A DNA stretch of 64,000 nt from Gemmatimonadales bacterium (lineage in GTDB: Bacteria; Gemmatimonadota; Gemmatimonadetes; Gemmatimonadales; JACORV01): contig JBEKVZ010000013.1 of NCBI GenBank assembly GCA_049513575.1, positions 22,062-86,061 on the forward strand, written 5' to 3'. A program made the position numbers and the translations under genes. Positions 16,388 to 24,916 of this stretch are shown here, in pieces (within the stretch, counting starts at the first letter, position 1; each line of letters starts with the position of its first letter). The notes below the pieces were generated by a model. That model was not told where the DNA came from and ran no database searches. It saw only the letters and a program-made list of their open reading frames with translations.

Positions 16388-18283
16388 GTGCCCGACGGCT
16401 TAACGACGGAACACGCGTCGCGTCTACCGGTACCAGACAACGTGAACACGCCCGCGGAATCCTCGACCCCTGCGCCGGCGCGCCGTTCGGGCGCCGCGCG
16501 ACTTTCTGTCCGCAGTGCGACCCGGGGGCTCGGCGCGGCCGTGCTCGTCGCGGTCGCGGCGACCGCGTGCTACAAGCTCGAGAGCACGGCGCCGGGCGCG
16601 ACCTTGAACTTCAAGAGCAATCCGTGCACGCCCGCAGACACCGTGCGGCTGGCGGTGGCGCAGACGGTGCGCGTCGACTGCAGCAACGGCGGGACGACGG
16701 TGACTTTCGGGGGCGCGGGGGCGAGCTACCTCATCGTTCCGGAGTTTGCGACGGACCAGGCGGTGTTCCAGTTCGTCGACTACGCCGTGGACAGCGGTCT
16801 TGCGCTGGCCGTCTCGGCCAGCGGGGTGAAGGCATCGGCCCGCGTGCGCGGCGGCGCGGGGCTGGCGGCGGCGCTGGCGCCGACGCGACCCACCGCCGCG
16901 CAGCGGGTCGCCGATGGGCGGCTGCGCGCACGCGGCAGGCAGCTGGCGATGTCGGGCGCCTTCAGGGCCTCGGGGGTCGCCGGCTTGCGAGCCGTGCAGG
17001 GCCCCGCCAGAGTGACCGTGCCCGCGCAGGGCAGCGTCCGGAGCTTCCAGGTCCTGTCGAACCTGTTCGGCACCAGCAATACGTGGGCGACGGTGGCTGC
17101 GCAGCTGGCGTATGTCGGCAGCAACATCCTGCTGTACGTGGACACGCTGGCCCCGGCGGGCGGCTTCACGCCGACGCAGCTGCAGAGCTACGGCCAGTAC
17201 TTTGACCAGACCCTGTTCCCCATCGACACGACCGCGTTCGGCGCGCCGACCGACATAGACGGGAACGGCCACGTCATCGTCCTGATGTCCAACGTCGTGA
17301 ACGCGGACACGCCCGCCTCCGTGTGCACGACCCAGGGGTACGTCGCGGGGTTCTTCAACGAGGAGGATTTCACCCCTGCGTCGGTCGACCCGAACTCGAA
17401 CCAGGGGGAGATCTTCTACACGATTCTGCCCGATCCCGCCGGCCAGCTCAGCTGCGCGCATAGCTTGGCGGACCTGGAGAGCAGCGTGCCCCCGACGTTC
17501 CTGCACGAGCTGCAGCATCTGATCAACTTCGCGCAGCACGTCGTGGTGAACGGCGGCCAGCCGCTGAGCAGCTGGCTGGACGAAGGCATGAGCATCGCGG
17601 CAGAGGAGTTGGGCTCCATCCACTACGAGCAGCAGTGCCCGGGGACGGCGTGCCGGACCAATCCGACGCAGCTGTTCCCCGATTCGTCCCAGCCGTTTGT
17701 CCAGGATTTCCTGTACGACTCGTATCAGTACGCGCTGCTGCCGGACACGGCGAGCATTCTGCTGGAGAACGACGCCGATCAGGGCTTCTCGTGGCGTGGG
17801 GGCGCGTGGCTCCTGGTGCGCTGGCTGGCCGACCAGAAGGGGAGCGGGGTCCTCCGGCAGCTCGAGCAGGGGCCGGACGACGGCGTGGCGGCCCTCGCGC
17901 AGGCGATGGGTGAGCCCTTCCCGCAGCTGTTCGCGGACTTTGGGCTGGCGCTGTACACCGACAGCCTGCCCGGGCTCGCGCGGACGACCGCCCCTGTGGC
18001 AAACCGGTTTGTCACTCGCAATCTCCGCCAGATGTGGGCGCGGCTCTACGCGACGTCGGGGGGGACGACTGACATCCCGCTGGCGATGCCGTTGCAGATC
18101 TTCTCGATTACGTCCGATACCACGAGCTACGTCATCTATCCCGGCACAGTGACTTACCTCCGGCTCGACACGCCGACGAACGCCGCCGCGGTATCCGTCC
18201 AGTTCGCCGGGCCAGGCGGCGTCGCTTTCCCGGGCGGCCTGCAGCCGCAGCTGGCGGTCTTCCGCCTCCCGCCGGGGCAGTGA
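16388..18283 (+). CDS. Putative lipoprotein zinc metallopeptidase (HEXXH, gluzincin/M30-like)
   Basis: Lipobox 'VAATAC'; 'TFLHELQHLINF' and 'WLDEGMS'; 'DIDGNG' possible Ca-binding loop; start uncertain. Confidence 0.7.
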   Translation: MPDGLTTEHASRLPVPDNVNTPAESSTPAPARRSGAARLSVRSATRGLGAAVLVAVAATACYKLESTAPGATLNFKSNPCTPADTVRLAVAQTVRVDCSNGGTTVTFGGAGASYLIVPEFATDQAVFQFVDYAVDSGLALAVSASGVKASARVRGGAGLAAALAPTRPTAAQRVADGRLRARGRQLAMSGAFRASGVAGLRAVQGPARVTVPAQGSVRSFQVLSNLFGTSNTWATVAAQLAYVGSNILLYVDTLAPAGGFTPTQLQSYGQYFDQTLFPIDTTAFGAPTDIDGNGHVIVLMSNVVNADTPASVCTTQGYVAGFFNEEDFTPASVDPNSNQGEIFYTILPDPAGQLSCAHSLADLESSVPPTFLHELQHLINFAQHVVVNGGQPLSSWLDEGMSIAAEELGSIHYEQQCPGTACRTNPTQLFPDSSQPFVQDFLYDSYQYALLPDTASILLENDADQGFSWRGGAWLLVRWLADQKGSGVLRQLEQGPDDGVAALAQAMGEPFPQLFADFGLALYTDSLPGLARTTAPVANRFVTRNLRQMWARLYATSGGTTDIPLAMPLQIFSITSDTTSYVIYPGTVTYLRLDTPTNAAAVSVQFAGPGGVAFPGGLQPQLAVFRLPPGQ

Positions 18284-18301
18284 GGGCGCGGTGAACCTCT
18301 C

Positions 18302-18338
18302 GGGCGCCGCCGACTCAGCGGCGCCCTTCTCTTTGTTT
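18302..18338 (+). terminator. Intrinsic terminator after the peptidase gene
   Basis: GGGCGCCGC-7 nt-GCGGCGCCC followed by TTCTCTTTGTTT. Confidence 0.75.
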
Positions 18339-18408
18339 CCGGCTTCTCCTTCCTGTTGTATACTGGTAACCACTCGGAACTTGGCGTCTCGCAACCCGCA
18401 ACTCTGAT

Positions 18409-18447
18409 CGGAGTGTGGCGCAGCCCGGTAGCGCGCCTGGTTTGGGA
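18409..18447 (+). pseudogene. Detached 5' half of tRNA-Pro(TGG), ending at the anticodon loop
   Basis: 38/39 identical to 19135-19173; identity stops right after TTTGGGA. Confidence 0.9.
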
Positions 18448-18895
18448 TTCCGGCGAAACGAAGAGGCGTTTGGCAGAAGCGCAGAAGGATTGGGCAGTTA
18501 GGCAGACAGGGTGCGACGGTCGAATCAGGCTTTCGCACCCTGTCTACGTCCATACTCGCACAGATTGTTGCACACCCCCGGCCAGAGGCCCACCTGACAC
18601 AGCTCCCCTCCAGGGTCCCATACCTAGTCGGCCCTGCAGGCTCGCCGCCGTTTTCGTGCACTTCCGGCCCGCCGTTGACATGCGGAGTCGCGGGGAAGCC
18701 GCACCCTGTGTCGGCCGCGCAACGGAAACCGTCATTACCGAGCATGTCCATCACAATTCCGGCAGGGCGTATCAACAGGCGCGGCGGCCGCTTGCGGAAC
18801 CTGATGCCTGCTCAACGGCTCAGCGTGTTTGGGGAACAGAGTCTGCGACGATCCTTCCGCAATTGGGCGAGACCAACCCAAGCGGAAGGCGTCCG

Positions 18896-19051
18896 ATGCC
18901 TGAGTGGTGGGGGCTGCACGTAGAGGGGGAGTTAGTTCAGGTCATTCGTTGGTGCGAGGCGTCTCGTCCGGCGCTGAGTGACTTTGGCGTCACTATCCAA
19001 AGCGCGGTCGAGTACGAGATCGCGCCCGTGCACGCGCCTGCGGTTCATTGA
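18896..19051 (+). CDS. Possible 51-aa orphan peptide (MPEWWGLHVEG...)
   Basis: ATG preceded by GGAAGG; no recognisable motif. Confidence 0.3.
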   Translation: MPEWWGLHVEGELVQVIRWCEASRPALSDFGVTIQSAVEYEIAPVHAPAVH

Positions 19052-19134
19052 CCGCCCGCAAGTGGCGGAGAGCATCACACCCCCGTCTTTCGGAGCGAGC
19101 GGCGATCTCGTAAGCTTCTGTCGCACCACTTCAT

Positions 19135-19208
19135 CGGGGTGTGGCGCAGCCCGGTAGCGCGCCTGGTTTGGGACCAGGAGGTCGCGGGTTCGAATCCCGC
19201 CGCCCCGA
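19135..19208 (+). tRNA. tRNA-Pro(TGG)
   Basis: Cloverleaf: acceptor CGGGGTG/CGCCCCG, anticodon arm CCTGG-TTTGGGA-CCAGG, T-loop GTTCGAATC; CCA not encoded. Confidence 0.97.
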
Positions 19209-19218
19209 CTGAACAAGC

Positions 19219-19257
19219 GAAAGCCCCACCGTAACTTAGCTCGGTGGGGCTTTCTTC
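19219..19257 (+). terminator. Terminator hairpin after tRNA-Pro
   Basis: GAAAGCCCCACCG-10 nt-CGGTGGGGCTTTC followed by TT. Confidence 0.8.
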
Positions 19258-19498
19258 GGTTTCGGCCGACTGCATGAACACCGTGTGAACATTTCGGCTT
19301 GCCGGGCGTCAAAGCCTCGGATTGGCCAGCGCGTCGCCCGCTGCGTCCCGGCAGCGGTCCGGCGAGGCCTGGCCGCGTTGTGAGGAGCGGCGGACCGTGC
19401 AGAACGCGAGACTTCGGCTTGGTCTGGCGTGTCGCTCAGAGCGACCGGAGTAACTCTATCTTCCGTCGCCACAAGTAGTTGTGGCCTTCTGCAAGCGC

Positions 19499-19515
19499 TT
19501 GGTATAGCGGATGCT
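19499..19515 (+). promoter_or_regulatory. sigma54-type (-24/-12) promoter upstream of the pilin genes
   Basis: TTGGTATAGCGGATGCT has GG-N10-GC spacing about 55 bp before the pilin start; sigma54 control of pilA is established in other diderms. Confidence 0.6.
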
Positions 19516-19569
19516 CCTGTAGGGTTCAGGGTTCTCGGCTGCTGACACACCAATATGGAGGTAGAATCC

Positions 19570-19947
19570 GTGCGCAACGCCAAGGGCTTCACGCTGATCG
19601 AGCTTCTGATCGTGGTGGTCATCATCGGCATTCTGGCCGCCATCGCGATTCCGAAGTTCGCGAACACGAAGGAGAAGGCGTACATCGCGTCGATGAAGTC
19701 GGATCTGCGCAACCTGATCACCGCGCAGGAAGCCTACTTCGCCGACAACGTGACCTACGCGAGCACGACGACGAACCTGAACTACGGCATTTCGGCCGGG
19801 AACACCGTCACGATCGGGACGGCGTCCGGGACGGGCTGGAACGCGACGTCCACGAACAACGCGACCCTGAAGACCTGCGGGATATACGTGGGCGCGGTGA
19901 CGCCGCCGGTGACGGGCGAGGCGGAAGGCGCGCCGACCTGCCAATAG
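19570..19947 (+). CDS. Type IV (IVa-like) pilin, probable major pilin
   Basis: Class III signal 'RNAKG|FTLIELLIVVVIIGILAAIAIPKF' with E5; C-terminal Cys pair; GGAGGT RBS. Confidence 0.92.
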   Translation: MRNAKGFTLIELLIVVVIIGILAAIAIPKFANTKEKAYIASMKSDLRNLITAQEAYFADNVTYASTTTNLNYGISAGNTVTIGTASGTGWNATSTNNATLKTCGIYVGAVTPPVTGEAEGAPTCQ

Positions 19948-20044
19948 GCAGCTGCTGATTGGCTCTTCGGGGGCGGCGAGGCTGGCTGCCCCTGGGGAGC
20001 GCTGCGAACCGAGCGTCCACCCCCGTCGCCCGGAGGCGAGTCGA

Positions 20045-20428
20045 GTGCGAGACCCCAGGGGCTTCACGCTCGTCGAGCTACTCCTCGTCGTGGTGATCAT
20101 CGGCATCCTCGCGACGATCGCCATCCCGAAGTTCGGGAACACGAAGGAGAAGGCGCTGGTGGCCGGGATGCAGGTGGACCTGAAGAACCTCGTGACCGCC
20201 GAGGAGGCCTACTTCGCGGATTACGTGACGTATACCGGCACGCTCGGCAACCTCGCCTACAACGTGTCCACCGGCAACACCCTCAACCTCATTTCGGTGA
20301 CAGCTAGCGGAACCGGCTGGAGCGCCACGGCGATGAACACCGGTACCGCTCACACCTGCGGGATCTTCGTCGGCAACGCGACGGCGCCGATGCCGGGCCA
20401 GGCCGAGGGCCAGCCGGTGTGCAAATAG
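20045..20428 (+). CDS. Second type IV pilin paralogue
   Basis: 'RDPRG|FTLVELLLVVVIIGILATIAIPKF'; colinear with pilin 1 including SGTGW and TC..C; GGAGG RBS. Confidence 0.9.
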   Translation: MRDPRGFTLVELLLVVVIIGILATIAIPKFGNTKEKALVAGMQVDLKNLVTAEEAYFADYVTYTGTLGNLAYNVSTGNTLNLISVTASGTGWSATAMNTGTAHTCGIFVGNATAPMPGQAEGQPVCK

Positions 20429-20486
20429 CGAAAGGGGCCGCAGTCGCCGGCTCCCGACGTGTGCAACGTGCTAGGAAGCGCCGCGC

Positions 20487-20527
20487 TTTGGGACCAGCAG
20501 GTCGCGGGTTCGAATCCCGCCGCCCCG
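20487..20527 (+). repeat. Detached 3' half of tRNA-Pro (attR-like direct repeat) starting at the anticodon loop
   Basis: 40/41 identical to 19167-19207; identity begins exactly at TTTGGGA. Confidence 0.9.
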
Positions 20528-20541
20528 GCTCGTACGTGGAA

Positions 20542-20569
20542 ACCCCGGCGTCGGTAACGGCGCCGGGGT
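20542..20569. terminator. GC-rich hairpin (likely terminator) after the tRNA 3' fragment, between convergent genes
   Basis: ACCCCGGCGTCG-GTAA-CGGCGCCGGGGT. Confidence 0.65.
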
Positions 20570-20593
20570 CTCCTTGTCGGCGCGGAGCCGCGC

Positions 20594-20995
20594 TCAGCGG
20601 CAGGTGATCTCGACGTCCGCCTGGTTCGATTCGATGCGGGTGTTGCCCGAAGCGACGCGCAGCTTCATCCATAGCTGCAGGTGCTGGCCCGCCGCGCCGA
20701 CCCGCCAATCCTCGCCCACGCCGATGACGTGGGCGTTGGGGTTCGTGACGTGGATCATCTTGAGCTCGCTCTTGGCCCCGTCGCTGCGCTCGAACACATA
20801 GTTGAACACCATCGGATGCGCCGTGACGCCGACCTTGCCGGCAAAGTGGATCCGCACCGGGCACGTCCCCTCGTACTTCGAGGGCGTGGCGGTGAGGGTG
20901 ACCTCGCCGAACGGGGACTGCGGCGCCGGAGCGGGAATGGCAGCCAGGGCGGGCAGTACGAGCAGGGCGAGTCCGAGGGCACGAGTGACCATCAT
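20594..20995 (-). CDS. Secreted hypothetical protein (beta-rich, two Cys)
   Basis: Signal peptide 'MVTRALGLALLVLPALA'; GGAGG RBS on the minus strand. Confidence 0.7.
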   Translation of the reverse strand: MMVTRALGLALLVLPALAAIPAPAPQSPFGEVTLTATPSKYEGTCPVRIHFAGKVGVTAHPMVFNYVFERSDGAKSELKMIHVTNPNAHVIGVGEDWRVGAAGQHLQLWMKLRVASGNTRIESNQADVEITCR

Positions 20996-21215
20996 CTCTC
21001 CTCCGTGTGTGCATGCGTGCGAAAGACGACCCCTGCGCCCGTCGCCGGAGCGACGCCGGGCGCTCCATCACCGTATGGTCTGCGACCGCCGATCGCAAAT
21101 GTCCGGAGGCCCGCAGCGCCGAGCGATGTTGTCCCTCTTCAAACTCACTGTCATTCTCACGCCCGGCCGCCGGCACCCCTACATTGGTGATACCCTACCG
21201 GACTGGAGGCCGACC

Positions 21216-22040
21216 GTGAACCGCTTCAAGCTGATGCCCGCCGCTGCCGCGCTGTGTGCTGCTCTTGCCGTTCCTCGCGCGCACGCCCAGGAGATCACGC
21301 TCCGTTTCGCGCCGCCGGTCGGGCAGGTGGTCCACTATCGCACCATCACGCAGAGCTGGCTGGCCGGGATGGGGGGGCCGGACACCACCGTCCCCGCGAC
21401 GCAAACGGCGATGTACATGACGCGTACCGTGACCGGGATGGACGGAGACGCACGCGTCGTCGCGACGGTCGTCGATTCGTCGTTGACCGAAATGCCGGGG
21501 ATGCCGGGCATGGCGGCGATGATCGCGAGGGTGGCGCGCGACGCAATGCGCGGGATGACGATCACCCAGAAGATCGATGCGCGCGGCCGCGTCCTGTCGT
21601 CGGATGTGAAGCTGCCGCAGGGCGCTCCGGCGCAATCCGGCCAGGGAACGACGCGCACTCCCGGTCGGATCGGGCCCGTCTTCCCCGAGGGACCGGTGCA
21701 CCCGGGCGATACCTGGACGGATTCGATGATTACGTCCACGTCGGCGGGGCGGGGCCAACAGGTGGAGTCCACGGTGCGTCTGACGCTCAAGCTGGAGCGG
21801 GTGGAGCAGCAGGGGGGAAGCCGCGTCGCCATCGTTTCGGTGAACGGAACGGTGCAGGCGGACAGCGTCGGCGGCGCGGCGCGCCAGGGATTGACGGCCG
21901 GGACGATGACGGGTGAGATGGCCATCGAGGTGGAGACGGGCCGCGTGACGCGCTCCACGTCGGATCTCCAGGCCACGATGCAGACACAGCGCGGCCCGAT
22001 GCCGACGCGCAGCAAGACCACCATGGAAGCGCTGCCGTAG
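21216..22040 (+). CDS. Secreted hypothetical protein (DUF6263-like)
   Basis: GGAGG RBS with GTG start; signal peptide ending AHA|Q; 'FPEGPVHPGDTW' motif. Confidence 0.65.
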   Translation: MNRFKLMPAAAALCAALAVPRAHAQEITLRFAPPVGQVVHYRTITQSWLAGMGGPDTTVPATQTAMYMTRTVTGMDGDARVVATVVDSSLTEMPGMPGMAAMIARVARDAMRGMTITQKIDARGRVLSSDVKLPQGAPAQSGQGTTRTPGRIGPVFPEGPVHPGDTWTDSMITSTSAGRGQQVESTVRLTLKLERVEQQGGSRVAIVSVNGTVQADSVGGAARQGLTAGTMTGEMAIEVETGRVTRSTSDLQATMQTQRGPMPTRSKTTMEALP

Positions 22041-22062
22041 GCGGCACGGGCGTCGCACCGCG

Positions 22063-22416
22063 ATGTACGAGTCTCGTCACCATCCTCCCATCAGTCGCCG
22101 GCGCTTCGCCCGCCGGATGGCCACGCACGCGGCGATCTTCGTCGGCTTCCTGCTCGTCTCGCTCTTCCTCGGGATGGCGGGGTACGCGTACTTCGAGCAC
22201 CTGGGATGGCGTGATGCGTTCCTGAACGCCGCCATGCTGATGGGCGGCATGGGGCCGGTCGAGACCGTGCAGACCCCCGGCGGCAAGGTGTTCGCCGGCC
22301 TGTATGCGCTCTACTGCGGGCTCGGCGTCCTCGTCGCGGCGGCGATCCTGATCGCGCCAGTGTTCCATCGGTTCCTCCACAAGTTCCACTGGAGCGCGGA
22401 CCACCCGGACCAGTAG
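22063..22416 (+). CDS. Small 2-TM membrane protein resembling a K+-channel pore module
   Basis: TM1, 'WRDAFLNAAMLMGGMGPV', 'TPGGKVF', TM2. Confidence 0.65.
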   Translation: MYESRHHPPISRRRFARRMATHAAIFVGFLLVSLFLGMAGYAYFEHLGWRDAFLNAAMLMGGMGPVETVQTPGGKVFAGLYALYCGLGVLVAAAILIAPVFHRFLHKFHWSADHPDQ

Positions 22417-22499
22417 AGCCGGGTGTCCCGACCTGCGGGCGCGCCGCCGTGGCGCGCCCGCGCCGCCGCCTCGTAGATTCCGCTCCGGCATCCGGCCAC

Positions 22500-22573
22500 G
22501 CGCCAGTAGCTCAGCTGGATAGAGCGGCAGCCTTCTAAGCTGCGGGCCGCAGGTTCGAGTCCTGCCTGGCGCA
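22500..22573 (+). tRNA. tRNA-Arg(TCT)
   Basis: Acceptor GCGCCAG/CTGGCGC; anticodon arm GCAGC-CTTCTAA-GCTGC; T-loop GGTTCGAGTCC. Confidence 0.97.
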
Positions 22574-22660
22574 CTTGCTTCCCGACATCGGTTCGCAGTC
22601 CGACGCGGCCGCCCTCCGGCGCCGGGGCTCGGCGGCGGAACTCCGCAAGCGCCGCGGCGT

Positions 22661-24916
22661 ATGAGGCGGTTCATGCCCGGGTCCCGCGTCGCCCCCTTCG
22701 TCGGTCTGTTCCTTGTCTGGGCCGCACCTGCAGTCGCACAGAATCCGGCCCCGGACACCACGACCGCGCCGGTGGCCGCGGCGGCCGATCCCGACAGCAT
22801 CGTCGCCCGCGCCATCGCGCGCCGCCGCGACGTCCTCACCACGATCGGCAACGTTTGCTACGACGCGTACGTGAAAGTGGCGGCGCGTACCCTCAGGGCG
22901 AACCATGACACCGCGCGGTCGGTCCTCTTCCTCTCCGAAACGCACAGCTCCGCCTACTGGGAGCCGCACCGCCACTACCAGGAGACCATCGAGGCGCGCC
23001 GCCAGTCTCGCGGGTTCGGCGCCCCGCGCGCCCTCGTGGCTGTGGACGAGATCGTGGACGTGGGCCGGGAGAGCATCGTGCTCGACGGCTACGCGGGTGC
23101 GGGGCGCGGCGAAGGCGCGAACCGTCGGGCCTTCGGGCAGGGCGGCACGGCGCACCGCTACGTGGTGCCGCTGCCGGTCGGCCGCGACGCCTTCGACCGC
23201 TACGCCTTCCGCCTGCTCGACACTCTCACCGTGGACGGCCGCCGCGCCTATCGCCTCGCCGTCATCCCGCGCTCTGCTTCGACGCCGCTCTTCGTCGGGA
23301 CGATGGATGTCGCCGACTCGACGTACGACCTCCTGGCGCTGGACCTCGGGCTCAACGACGCGGTGCGGTTCGGCGCGGTCCGCGGTCTGCGCTACCGGGA
23401 GCGGTTCGCCGATGCCGGGGACGGCCGGTGGCTCCCCGCGGAGATCCGGCTCACGGGGGAAATTCGGCCCCGGATCACGGCCGATGGGCTGCCGCGTGAG
23501 GTGGCTGGGGTCCCCGTTCCGGGCCTCCCCGAAGCACTGGCCTTCGAGCAGGTCGCCGCGTTGAGTGCCTTCCGCTTCGACGTGGGGGACCGGCCGGACG
23601 GCCTCGGCGAGTATCGCGTCGTGGTGCGGGAGGGGGCCGACCATCCGGACAGCGTTGCGTGGGATGCGCCGGGGGCCCCGCCGCTGACCGCGGCCGAGCG
23701 TCAAGCCTGGGCCCGATCCGACTCGGCCGAGCGCCACCCGCCGACGCTGATGCGGATCGGGCAGGGGATCGGGGCCGTGGGCGAGGTGATGGCGAATCCC
23801 GGCTACTTCCACTTCAACCGCGTCGACGGCTACTACCTCGGACTCGCGCCGACCTGGCGGCTCTCCCCGGACGTCATCCTCGACACGAAGGCGGGCTACG
23901 CCCTGGGCAGCGAGACGTGGCAGTATGGCTTCGGCGGGCGGGTGCGGCTGTCGGAGGGGCGGCGGATGTGGGTCGGCGCGTCCTACGGTGACGAGACGGT
24001 GAGCCGCCCAACGCTCATCTCGAGCCAGTACAACCCGACGTTCCGGGCGCTGTTCGCGCGGGTGGATCCCCTGGACTACTACCGGGAGAAGGGTCTCCAC
24101 GTCTCGTTCGGGACCAAGCTGCTGAACCTGACCCAGCTCGAGCTCGGTTACGAGGACGCGCGCCAGTCGAGCCTCGACACGCTGCCGGGCTACTCCTTCC
24201 ACTCGACGCGCTTCCCGGCTCGCGGCAACCCGCCTATCGCGCCGGGGCATCTGCGGGCGCTGTCCGCGACGCTGACTTGGGACTCGCGTGAAATGGTGCG
24301 GAGCAGGGCGGGGGACTACCGGCTGAGCCCGATGAGCTGGACCCGGATCTCGGGCGGCGTCGAGGCCGCGGCGCCCTCCGTCATCGCGAACGACTTCTCG
24401 TACCGCCGCTTCACGCTCGAGATCCAGCACGCGCAGCCGCTGTTAGGGTGGGGGACGACGACCGTCTCGGCGGTGGGCGGCATCGCCACGGGCCTGGTGC
24501 CGCCGCAGCGCTACTTCACGGTGGACTTCGGAATGGACGTGCTGGCCGTCGAGGGGAACGCTTTCAGCACGCTGGCGCGGACCAACTACTACGGGAACGA
24601 AGCCGCGGTCATCACCGTGCGGCACGATTTCGACCGGCTCCTTTTCACCCGCAGCGGCCTGCCGCTGATCCGCAGCCTGCCGTTCACACTGAGCGTGCAG
24701 GCGGGACTGTTCTGGACGGACTTCGTGAACCACGTGCCGTACGCCGGCGACTCGATGCTGGCGACGGCGCCGACCCCGTATTCCGAGGTCGGCTTCTCGC
24801 TGGGCAACCTGACCCCGTTCCTCTCGCCCTTCAACTTCTCCGCCACTTTCGCCTGGCAACTCTCGTCGTACGCGACGCGCCGGTTCCGCTTCGGGATAGG
24901 GCTGAGTGGGCCGTAG
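22661..24916 (+). CDS. Outer-membrane beta-barrel protein (DUF5686-like)
   Basis: Signal peptide; 'FLSETHS', 'FNRVDGYYLG' and alternating beta-strand C-terminus. Confidence 0.65.
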   Translation: MRRFMPGSRVAPFVGLFLVWAAPAVAQNPAPDTTTAPVAAAADPDSIVARAIARRRDVLTTIGNVCYDAYVKVAARTLRANHDTARSVLFLSETHSSAYWEPHRHYQETIEARRQSRGFGAPRALVAVDEIVDVGRESIVLDGYAGAGRGEGANRRAFGQGGTAHRYVVPLPVGRDAFDRYAFRLLDTLTVDGRRAYRLAVIPRSASTPLFVGTMDVADSTYDLLALDLGLNDAVRFGAVRGLRYRERFADAGDGRWLPAEIRLTGEIRPRITADGLPREVAGVPVPGLPEALAFEQVAALSAFRFDVGDRPDGLGEYRVVVREGADHPDSVAWDAPGAPPLTAAERQAWARSDSAERHPPTLMRIGQGIGAVGEVMANPGYFHFNRVDGYYLGLAPTWRLSPDVILDTKAGYALGSETWQYGFGGRVRLSEGRRMWVGASYGDETVSRPTLISSQYNPTFRALFARVDPLDYYREKGLHVSFGTKLLNLTQLELGYEDARQSSLDTLPGYSFHSTRFPARGNPPIAPGHLRALSATLTWDSREMVRSRAGDYRLSPMSWTRISGGVEAAAPSVIANDFSYRRFTLEIQHAQPLLGWGTTTVSAVGGIATGLVPPQRYFTVDFGMDVLAVEGNAFSTLARTNYYGNEAAVITVRHDFDRLLFTRSGLPLIRSLPFTLSVQAGLFWTDFVNHVPYAGDSMLATAPTPYSEVGFSLGNLTPFLSPFNFSATFAWQLSSYATRRFRFGIGLSGP

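Follow-up and report, generated by a model that had tools for sequence, protein, structure and literature searches.

The Islander collection of genomic islands (Hudson, Lau & Williams 2015, PMC4383910) comprises 3919 islands, 3760 of them with displaced 3' tRNA fragments and 159 with 5' fragments, and counts 2083 as anticodon-centred. As its filters are described there, an island must contain an integrase and measure between 2 and 200 kb. Decayed integrative elements that have lost their integration and transfer genes and keep attL and attR have been described as cis-mobilizable elements (CIMEs), together with their tandem accretion at one site and their mobilization in cis once a related active element has joined them, the term being defined for relatives of ICEs (integrative and conjugative elements) and of IMEs (integrative and mobilizable elements) in streptococci (PMC5704250). 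Here we analyze a tRNA-Pro(UGG) locus in a 64,000-nucleotide stretch of DNA from a Gemmatimonadales bacterium (GenBank assembly GCA_049513575.1, contig JBEKVZ010000013.1, positions 22,062 to 86,061; hereafter the window), in which an intact gene is flanked on one side by a 5' half and on the other by a 3' half of the same tRNA. The locus is very probably the scar of site-specific integration. In what follows the window is contig C13 of genome G000, with G denoting genomes compared, L fetched loci or contigs, and C contigs within a genome.

The three tRNA copies share a single breakpoint. A repeat finder pairs 18407-18447 with 19133-19173 (41 nt, 40/41 identical, 98%) and 19167-19210 with 20487-20530 (44 nt, 42/44 identical, 95%), in both cases in direct orientation. 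The heptamer TTTGGGA closes the 5' copy and opens the 3' copy, so that these copies overlap only in the 7-nt anticodon loop, and the distance from heptamer to heptamer is 726 bp from the 5' half to the intact gene and 1320 bp from there to the 3' half. The halves were searched against the whole 3.6-Mb assembly (20 contigs), and the resulting E values (Table 1) mean that neither match is a chance one. The repeat finder and ARAGORN thus bear out a first-pass annotation of the window, which had described tRNA-Pro as present three times (a 5' half matching at 38/39 positions, an intact gene and a 3' half matching at 40/41), cut at TTTGGGA. The same annotation had pointed to a TATACT box and to a hairpin after the 3' half; both are present in the sequence, and a simple sigma-70 consensus scan for promoters and terminators reports neither. 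Of the genome's three tRNA-Pro genes (tgg, ggg and cgg), only the intact copy reads UGG. This copy is 100% identical to the tRNA-Pro of G002, G005 and G008. The 5' half differs from it by G4>A in the acceptor stem and the 3' half by G>C at 20498 in the anticodon stem, changes that would each break a helix if the halves were rejoined. Rfam, applied to 17500-23000 with E up to 1, returned two tRNAs and one sub-threshold plastid match on the tRNA-Arg gene downstream (anticodon UCU, ARAGORN tRNA-Arg(tct), at 22500-22574, with which Rfam concurs) and nothing else.

Table 1. Features of the tRNA-Pro(UGG) locus in window coordinates
Feature	Position	Strand	Remarks
TATACT -10-like box of the resident tRNA-Pro promoter	18359-18364	+	Followed by the lineage's conserved leader to 18408; aligns with G002, L100-L103, L106, L108
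Displaced 5' half of the resident tRNA-Pro(UGG); tRNA positions 1-38	18409-18447	+	Ends with heptamer 18441-18447; E 1.7e-12
Interval X, patchwork DNA from 5' half to intact gene	18448-19134	+	With the intact gene's 5' part (to 19173) forms the 726-bp unit
Perfect 13-bp hairpin, 16-nt loop, no T-run after it	18504-18545	+	Inverted repeat I9
IS21-family element, relic of its terminal ~40 bp	18642-18681	+	Insertion sequence (IS) interior leftward, tip at 18681
Conserved module: ~210-nt leader and 51-codon open reading frame (ORF; 18898-19051)	18684-19051	+	Present in genus genomes
Intact tRNA-Pro(UGG)	19135-19209	+	ARAGORN tRNA-Pro(tgg); Rfam 68.6 bits; sole UGG copy in genome
Terminator-like hairpin after intact gene	19219-19254	+	Inverted repeat I10; type accompanying islands at this tRNA in relatives
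Left arm of Y	19251-19304	+	Homologous to integrase-proximal arm of L101 island
Type IV pilin gene 1, 125 codons from GTG	19571-19947	+	Pfam N_methyl 1.6e-9
Type IV pilin gene 2, 127 codons	20045-20428	+	Pfam N_methyl 8.2e-9; 71-73% identical to gene 1
Right arm of Y, abutting heptamer	20429-20486	+	Read from sequence
Displaced 3' half of the resident tRNA-Pro(UGG); tRNA positions 32-76	20487-20527	+	E 1.4e-13
Terminator-like hairpin after 3' half	20537-20575 (about)	+	38/43 columns identical to hairpin after L101 tRNA-Pro
133-codon ORF, no known family	20594-20995	-	Resident downstream neighbor, outside insertions

The surroundings of the two halves are those of a single gene in related genomes. 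G002, from the same genus, has in order a 631-codon upstream gene, the TATACT box and leader, an intact tRNA-Pro, a small membrane ORF homologous to window positions 22063-22416, and tRNA-Arg. Scanning metagenomes with the protein of the upstream gene yielded 18 loci; seven contain the tRNA-Pro, and six of these seven were inspected (L100, L101, L102, L103, L106 and L108). The leader that precedes the window's 5' half is found in all six, at 88-90% identity over 92-148 nt in five and at 76% in L100; the sequence in front of the window's intact gene is unrelated to this clade leader. At the other end, L106 has an intact tRNA-Pro, a hairpin and then a homologue of the minus-strand ORF that follows the 3' half in the window (82% amino acid identity over 108 residues). 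With the native leader at the 5' half and an L106-type context at the 3' half, the halves are therefore two in-place pieces of the resident gene, which is split in two with about 2 kb between them. This agrees with the first-pass annotation, which had taken the outer halves for one original transcription unit, the upstream leader being common to G002 and L100-L108 and the downstream context to L106. The empty sites which that annotation had suggested looking for exist as well: no insertion is present in G002, in L103 and L108, which resemble G002, or in L106, which is likewise counted as an empty site. The naming of the upstream gene as a peptidase found no support in Pfam.

Interval Y (19210-20486), between the intact gene and the 3' half, belongs with islands that occupy the same tRNA in relatives. 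Its left arm aligns with the L101 DNA that runs from the tRNA-Pro hairpin to a tyrosine integrase gene on the minus strand, with 45 of 55 aligned columns identical. The L101-type family is characterized by a hairpin and, behind it, an arm in which GAAC motifs stand in pairs some 65-78 nt past the tRNA end, and this arrangement is found in Y: GAAC occurs 67 and 78 nt past the tRNA end in the window and in G023, at 65 and 76 nt in L101, and at 58, 67 and 78 nt in G013. L101 and L102 both have a minus-strand gene for a PF00589 integrase some 90 nt past tRNA-Pro(UGG) (1.1e-12 and 3.7e-6), and the integrase at tRNA-Pro(UGG) in G023 is 70% identical to that of L101 over 169 residues. Among the seven close relatives that share the upstream gene (G002 and the six inspected contigs), two, L101 and L102, thus have an integrase-bearing island at this site. 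L100 may be a third, but we make no such claim: the L100 ORF in question has its best match in its own genome at a place with no integrase call beside it. An exact search for the arm pattern within the family matched 2 of 27 genomes (G000 and G023), the pattern being too strict for G013, L101 and G084.

In some related units no integrase is seen. G084, of the same order, carries at tRNA-Pro(UGG) a 5.2-kb island (about L148:1157-6466; G084:C24:33500-41500) with a 3' fragment that starts at TTTGGGA, the GAAC arm, and cargo encoding SIR2_2 and DUF3800 proteins, all without an integrase; by eye, a short stretch beside the arm looks like the final few codons left from an integrase gene that was deleted. 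Given its SIR2_2 and DUF3800 proteins, this island is possibly a defence islet. The arm is also present in G013, where tblastn detects no integrase within 5 kb. The first-pass annotation had proposed a search for differing cargo, and the 3' side of the tRNA does differ among relatives, with integrase-bearing islands in L101, L102 and G023 and SIR2-type cargo in G084. The tRNA-Pro(UGG) gene is a busy integration site in the clade.

Within the window, none of the ORFs scanned in the Y interval matches PF00589 in Pfam, and tblastn of four relatives' integrases (including those of L101, L102 and the G002 island) against 18300-22100 yields best E values of 0.2 or more (0.9 for L102). The arm of Y is homologous to that of integrase-bearing islands and no integrase is detected, and Y is therefore a remnant, now without integrase, of an ordinary family of anticodon-centred islands with a 3' fragment. 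No match elsewhere was found for the right arm.

The pilin genes of Y have close kin at other RNA genes. Gene 1 is 96% identical to G000 C4:212135-212512, which lies directly downstream of the transfer-messenger RNA (tmRNA) gene (a tmRNA fragment was looked for beyond this copy and not found), and a three-gene pilin array at C1:489189-490537 shares 86% identity with the pair. An island at tRNA-Pro(CGG) in G002 encodes a DUF4177 protein (L032:7122-7736) with 72% identity to pilin 1 in its C-terminal part. Together these copies indicate that pilin domains travel with tRNA- and tmRNA-linked DNA in the genus. Islands at the other two tRNA-Pro genes of the genus likewise break at the loop, for example at G000 C16:1189-1223 and at G002 C4:590217-590259, the latter bounding a 7.5-kb island with an integrase, PriCT_1 and HTH_17 domains and a protein with a pilin-like C-terminus. 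The tRNA-Pro(GGG) of G000 lies at a contig end (C1:522-596), and the fragment on C16 is its 3' fragment, starting at the anticodon loop; a further island at this gene appears to be split across contigs C1 and C16.

Set beside the Islander 3'-fragment class, Y has the same regenerated gene, island and direct 3' fragment starting at the anticodon loop, as described for that class (PMC4383910), and related tyrosine-integrase islands occupy the same tRNA in relatives. The full gene is followed downstream by its cognate 3' fragment in direct orientation (19135-19209 and 20487-20530, 42/44). It differs in having no tyrosine integrase inside or overlapping it and in its length, the 1320 bp between heptamers lying below the 2-kb lower bound of the 2-200 kb filter given in that source (PMC4383910). 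Y is thus a relic and not a full member of the Islander island class. The description of CIMEs (PMC5704250) fits it in other respects: like the G084 island, Y keeps its junctions and arm (both heptamer junctions and the left arm), has lost the integrase and has an integrase-bearing ancestry. It differs from them in that neither conjugation genes in the parent islands nor any mobilization were seen here.

Interval X is of a different character and looks, from its sequence, like a decayed patchwork rather than a tidy cassette. Neither Pfam on its reading frames nor Rfam on its DNA finds a family. The IS relic in it matches the IS21-family ends of contigs C12 and C6 of the same genome at 33/39 positions and copies in G001 and G002 at 35/40 and 35/39. 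These ends are identical over 127 nt and close C12 on both sides (1-127 and 100583-100709) and C6 at its start (1-126); in the G002 copy there are genes for IstB_IS21 (6e-80) and for an rve transposase. In G001 and G002, and twice in the latter, 3' fragments of tRNA-Pro(GGG) are followed after about 55 bp by an IS end, which suggests that the IS21-family element may prefer a target next to the tRNA-Pro(GGG) attachment site. The rest of the recognizable DNA in X is a module of about 370 nt that occurs in 5 of the 12 other genomes of the genus (6 of 13 with its own), at 70-74% identity, in at least three contexts and never beside a tRNA-Pro (for example L029:3481-3845, L030:3383-3761 and L031:3493-3851). 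In the alignment its leader lacks codon-periodic variation and the ORF part varies in the third position, the ORF starting (M/V)PEWWGL. The module has no Pfam or Rfam match, and a tRNA-Leu fragment looked for near the copy in G007 was not found.

Islands with a displaced 5' tRNA fragment were reportedly first described by Zhao and Williams in the Journal of Bacteriology in 2002. X resembles them in having a 5' fragment that precedes the intact gene, runs in the same, direct orientation and breaks off at the anticodon loop's 3' edge, within the crossover region (40/41). It differs in lacking an integrase, in measuring 726 bp, in having no related element in relatives and in sharing its tRNA with a 3'-fragment scar. 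An imported promoter for the regenerated gene was likewise not seen in X, a point that counts for little given that the scan also misses the native TATACT box.

The reading that we favor, and to which we give about an even chance, combines two events, with X an element of 5' polarity and Y an island of 3' polarity. Tyrosine integrases would have acted on the resident tRNA-Pro(UGG), recombining at its 7-nt anticodon loop and splitting the gene such that its 5' half stayed behind its own promoter and its 3' half before its own terminator and neighbor, and the inserted DNA would have supplied the working tRNA-Pro copy between them. Y would have entered as a 3'-fragment island bringing a tRNA 3' half, a terminator and the integrase-proximal arm, and would later have lost its integrase, leaving the two intact pilin genes. 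As a second insertion, most likely, and of opposite, rare polarity, X would have brought a 5' half, displaced the resident 5' half and then decayed to the IS relic and the small ORF module. A crossover inside the loop predicts exactly the overlap seen between the outer copies (positions 1-38 and 32-76), which is confined to the heptamer, and the two-event version is built from known classes only, because 5'- and 3'-fragment islands are both documented. Both displaced halves carry helix-breaking changes while the intact copy equals the genes of relatives, which we count as decay. The common break in the loop had already been recognized in the first-pass annotation as the signature of tyrosine-integrase crossover, and this holds up against the anticodon-centred class (2083 of the 3919 islands) reported from Islander (PMC4383910). 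We infer integrase action at the joints, the number and order of the events, and the loss of the integrases by deletion.

Several observations weigh against two separate integrations. For the first part of X (18448-18641), searches of its own genome and of 201 genomes of the order turned up no homologue, Pfam and tblastn detect no trace of an integrase in X, and the consensus scan of 18200-20700 reports no promoter and hence none for X, the native TATACT box being missed by it too. Neither X nor any other 5' half occurs at this tRNA in the 26 other genomes of the family. Across the phylum, a 16-nt junction pattern matched 13 of 401 genomes, but 12 of the 13 matches, with no tRNA upstream, are chance ones and a reversed control was about as frequent, so that real 5' halves are found in none of the 400 other genomes sampled. 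With no relative carrying a 5' half, an element of 5' polarity is therefore undocumented in the lineage, and its presence beside Y needs a coincidence. Integrase action is itself a presumption. Finally, the hypothetical joint of the right end of Y with the left end of X has a 5-bp dyad, CGCCG(N3)TTTGGGA(N3)CGGCG, which fits a single element better.

Such a single element, of 2046 bp and originally larger, would have carried a whole tRNA-Pro together with the Y island and entered the heptamer once. In specialized transducing lambda, aberrant excision picks up flanking chromosomal DNA; the composite could have arisen in the same style in a donor, by excision between a pseudo-site upstream of the tRNA and the right attachment site of the island, and could then have integrated via the hybrid site, so that the resident gene was split and not rebuilt. 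The lambda precedent serves as a model for this reading only: it explains an element with a whole tRNA gene and upstream DNA that integrates at a hybrid site, and differs from the locus, which is without phage genes. Both halves would then stem from one event. The composite also accounts for the finding that the only 5' half in 401 genomes of the phylum occurs at a tRNA where a Y-type scar is present as well, for the symmetric dyad at the joint, and for the make-up of X, since picked-up flanking DNA should look like this combination of an IS relic with a module found on the chromosome in 5 of the 12 genus relatives. A donor from the clade should, however, have passed on the leader, which stands before tRNA-Pro(UGG) in each of the 16 relatives' loci and six metagenome loci inspected, and the intact gene lacks it. 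Moreover, the X module stands beside tRNA-Pro in no relative, and the dyad may be due to chance (a rough estimate of 0.01-0.05, not computed with a tool). We know of no described class of elements that splits a tRNA gene while carrying a separate whole copy. A composite origin is for these reasons somewhat unlikely in our judgment.

The first-pass annotation had preferred another reading, in which the locus is a live, integrase-less cassette array anchored at the tRNA and mobilized by an integrase acting in trans. Both units keep intact heptamers, Y keeps both arms, and integrase-less units with the same arm exist in G084 (5.2 kb, with a 3' fragment) and possibly in G013. On the other side, the search for a tyrosine recombinase beside a tRNA-Pro that the annotation had proposed came back empty, with none of the seven PF00589 matches in the genome so placed, and the closest relative of the L101 integrase is only 35% identical to it and lies beside tRNA-Gln. 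The integrase codons seen by eye in G084 point to decay rather than design. X, besides, contains an IS relic, and mutations have built up in the displaced halves. An integron-like array, with a resident integrase and cassettes bearing structured recombination sites, is not what we find: there is no integrase at the locus or at any tRNA-Pro, and the units share only the heptamer and tRNA halves.

Metagenomes bear on the same question. We listed 24 peat and wetland runs from 24 studies, four of them flagged as possible sources, and aligned contigs for four (runs X6, X19, X23 and X24). Contigs joining across 726, 1320 or 2046 bp, the excision joints that the first-pass annotation had suggested seeking, are absent from all four, contigs being blind to rare variants. 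The depth of X resembles that of its flanks (7.4 versus 5.3-7.0, 9.3 versus 6.6-7.9, 8.8 versus 2.8-7.3 and 87.1 versus 83.7-89.9 in the four runs), and depth is about equal across all segments in each. No cargo variation was seen at the locus in the metagenome runs. Variant letters at 19699-19912 were considered as such and rejected as cross-mapping of the pilin paralogue, a loose end at 19948 belonging to the C4 locus. Contigs from X6 and X24 join the end of tRNA-Pro (19209/19210) to tRNA-Arg (22499/22503), skipping 3288-3293 bp at a depth near that of the organism; these were rejected as a variant of this organism, being absent from X19 and X23 at equal organism depth and matching the arrangement in G014, and they probably come from a relative with a G014-type adjacency. 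The arrangement of the locus is fixed in the population. With Y a decayed copy of an integrase-bearing family, X a patchwork with an IS relic and no excision joints, the trans-mobilized array does not hold up as the preferred account, and we regard it as improbable. A bolder form of it, in which X, the intact gene and Y make up a still-recombinable integrase-less composite with its own tRNA-Pro, L101-type integrases move the unit or parts of it in trans and shuttle pilin variants among peat bacteria, and the locus is one case of an undescribed wider habit of small inserts at the tRNA-Pro(UGG) loop, strikes us as a long shot.

The same runs speak to the assembly. An exact 35-nt repeat (18413-18447 and 19139-19173) exceeds what k=31 contigs can bridge, so that upstream DNA could formally be joined to the 3' part of the locus and X be a 726-bp circle, with pieces of different strains or a small circle strung together by the assembler. 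Set against this, all junction contigs are present in all four independent runs: a 751-nt contig over 18418-19168 and a 456-nt contig over 19144-19599 recur in each, and a single contig spans the right end of Y, the 3' half and the downstream DNA in three (19891-22600 in X6, 20312-22339 in X19 and 20097-22526 in X24), the 3' half being covered by a contig over 20361-20682 in X23. Between 88 and 98% of the words of 18200-20700 are held by every one of the 24 listed runs. A replicating 726-bp circle present at exactly one copy per chromosome, as the matching depth of X would demand, is implausible, and an assembly artefact is extremely unlikely. Equally hard to credit is a scenario in which the tRNA region was duplicated in tandem and unrelated deletions or insertions came later, without site-specific recombination; duplication can make direct repeats, and the scenario has nothing more specific in its favor, while two independent breakpoints would have to coincide with both edges of one 7-nt loop, the other tRNA-Pro islands of the genus break at the loop too, and the arm of Y is homologous to integrase-bearing islands.

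Comparable 5' halves occur outside the lineage. When genome contigs were scanned for the 5' half with a base foreign to the gene right after it, 46 stretches came up, 45 of which are truncated halves cut at the same heptamer, from 45 species genomes in several phyla. For 25 of the 45 an intact tRNA-Pro lies 30-1307 bp downstream within the fetched locus, at 152-181 bp in 17 of these 25. Most of the 45 halves (L054-L099) come from metagenome-assembled genomes titled as gut Clostridia, with single cases from Chloroflexia, Acidoferrum, Gemmatimonadota and Tepidisphaerales. A recurring sequence follows the cut in the Clostridia cases, which may be a family of very small inserts. On a Chloroflexia chromosome (L087:1-1430), a 1307-bp integrase-less islet lies between a tRNA-Pro(UGG) 5' half and the intact gene; its sequence after the heptamer begins TTCC, like that of the window, and one small ORF looks RelE/ParE-like by eye. 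Viral contigs gave no match to either the 5'-half or the 3'-half junction pattern.

The locus is a known kind of scar, that of anticodon-centred tyrosine-integrase recombination, in an unusual two-sided form which brings together the common 3'-fragment and the rare 5'-fragment classes. It opens no new mechanism, and its value lies in guidance for annotation and in a small data point on island decay; island finders that demand an integrase and a length of 2 kb overlook such islets. For the organism, the pilin genes are a case of cargo arriving with an island in an uncultured peat lineage. The locus also provides a documented comparative example of how a tRNA integration hot spot can end up surrounded by leftovers. 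Since the 5'-fragment scar shares its tRNA with the 3'-fragment scar, the working gene for this essential tRNA may be wholly imported, the resident gene persisting as two decaying halves.

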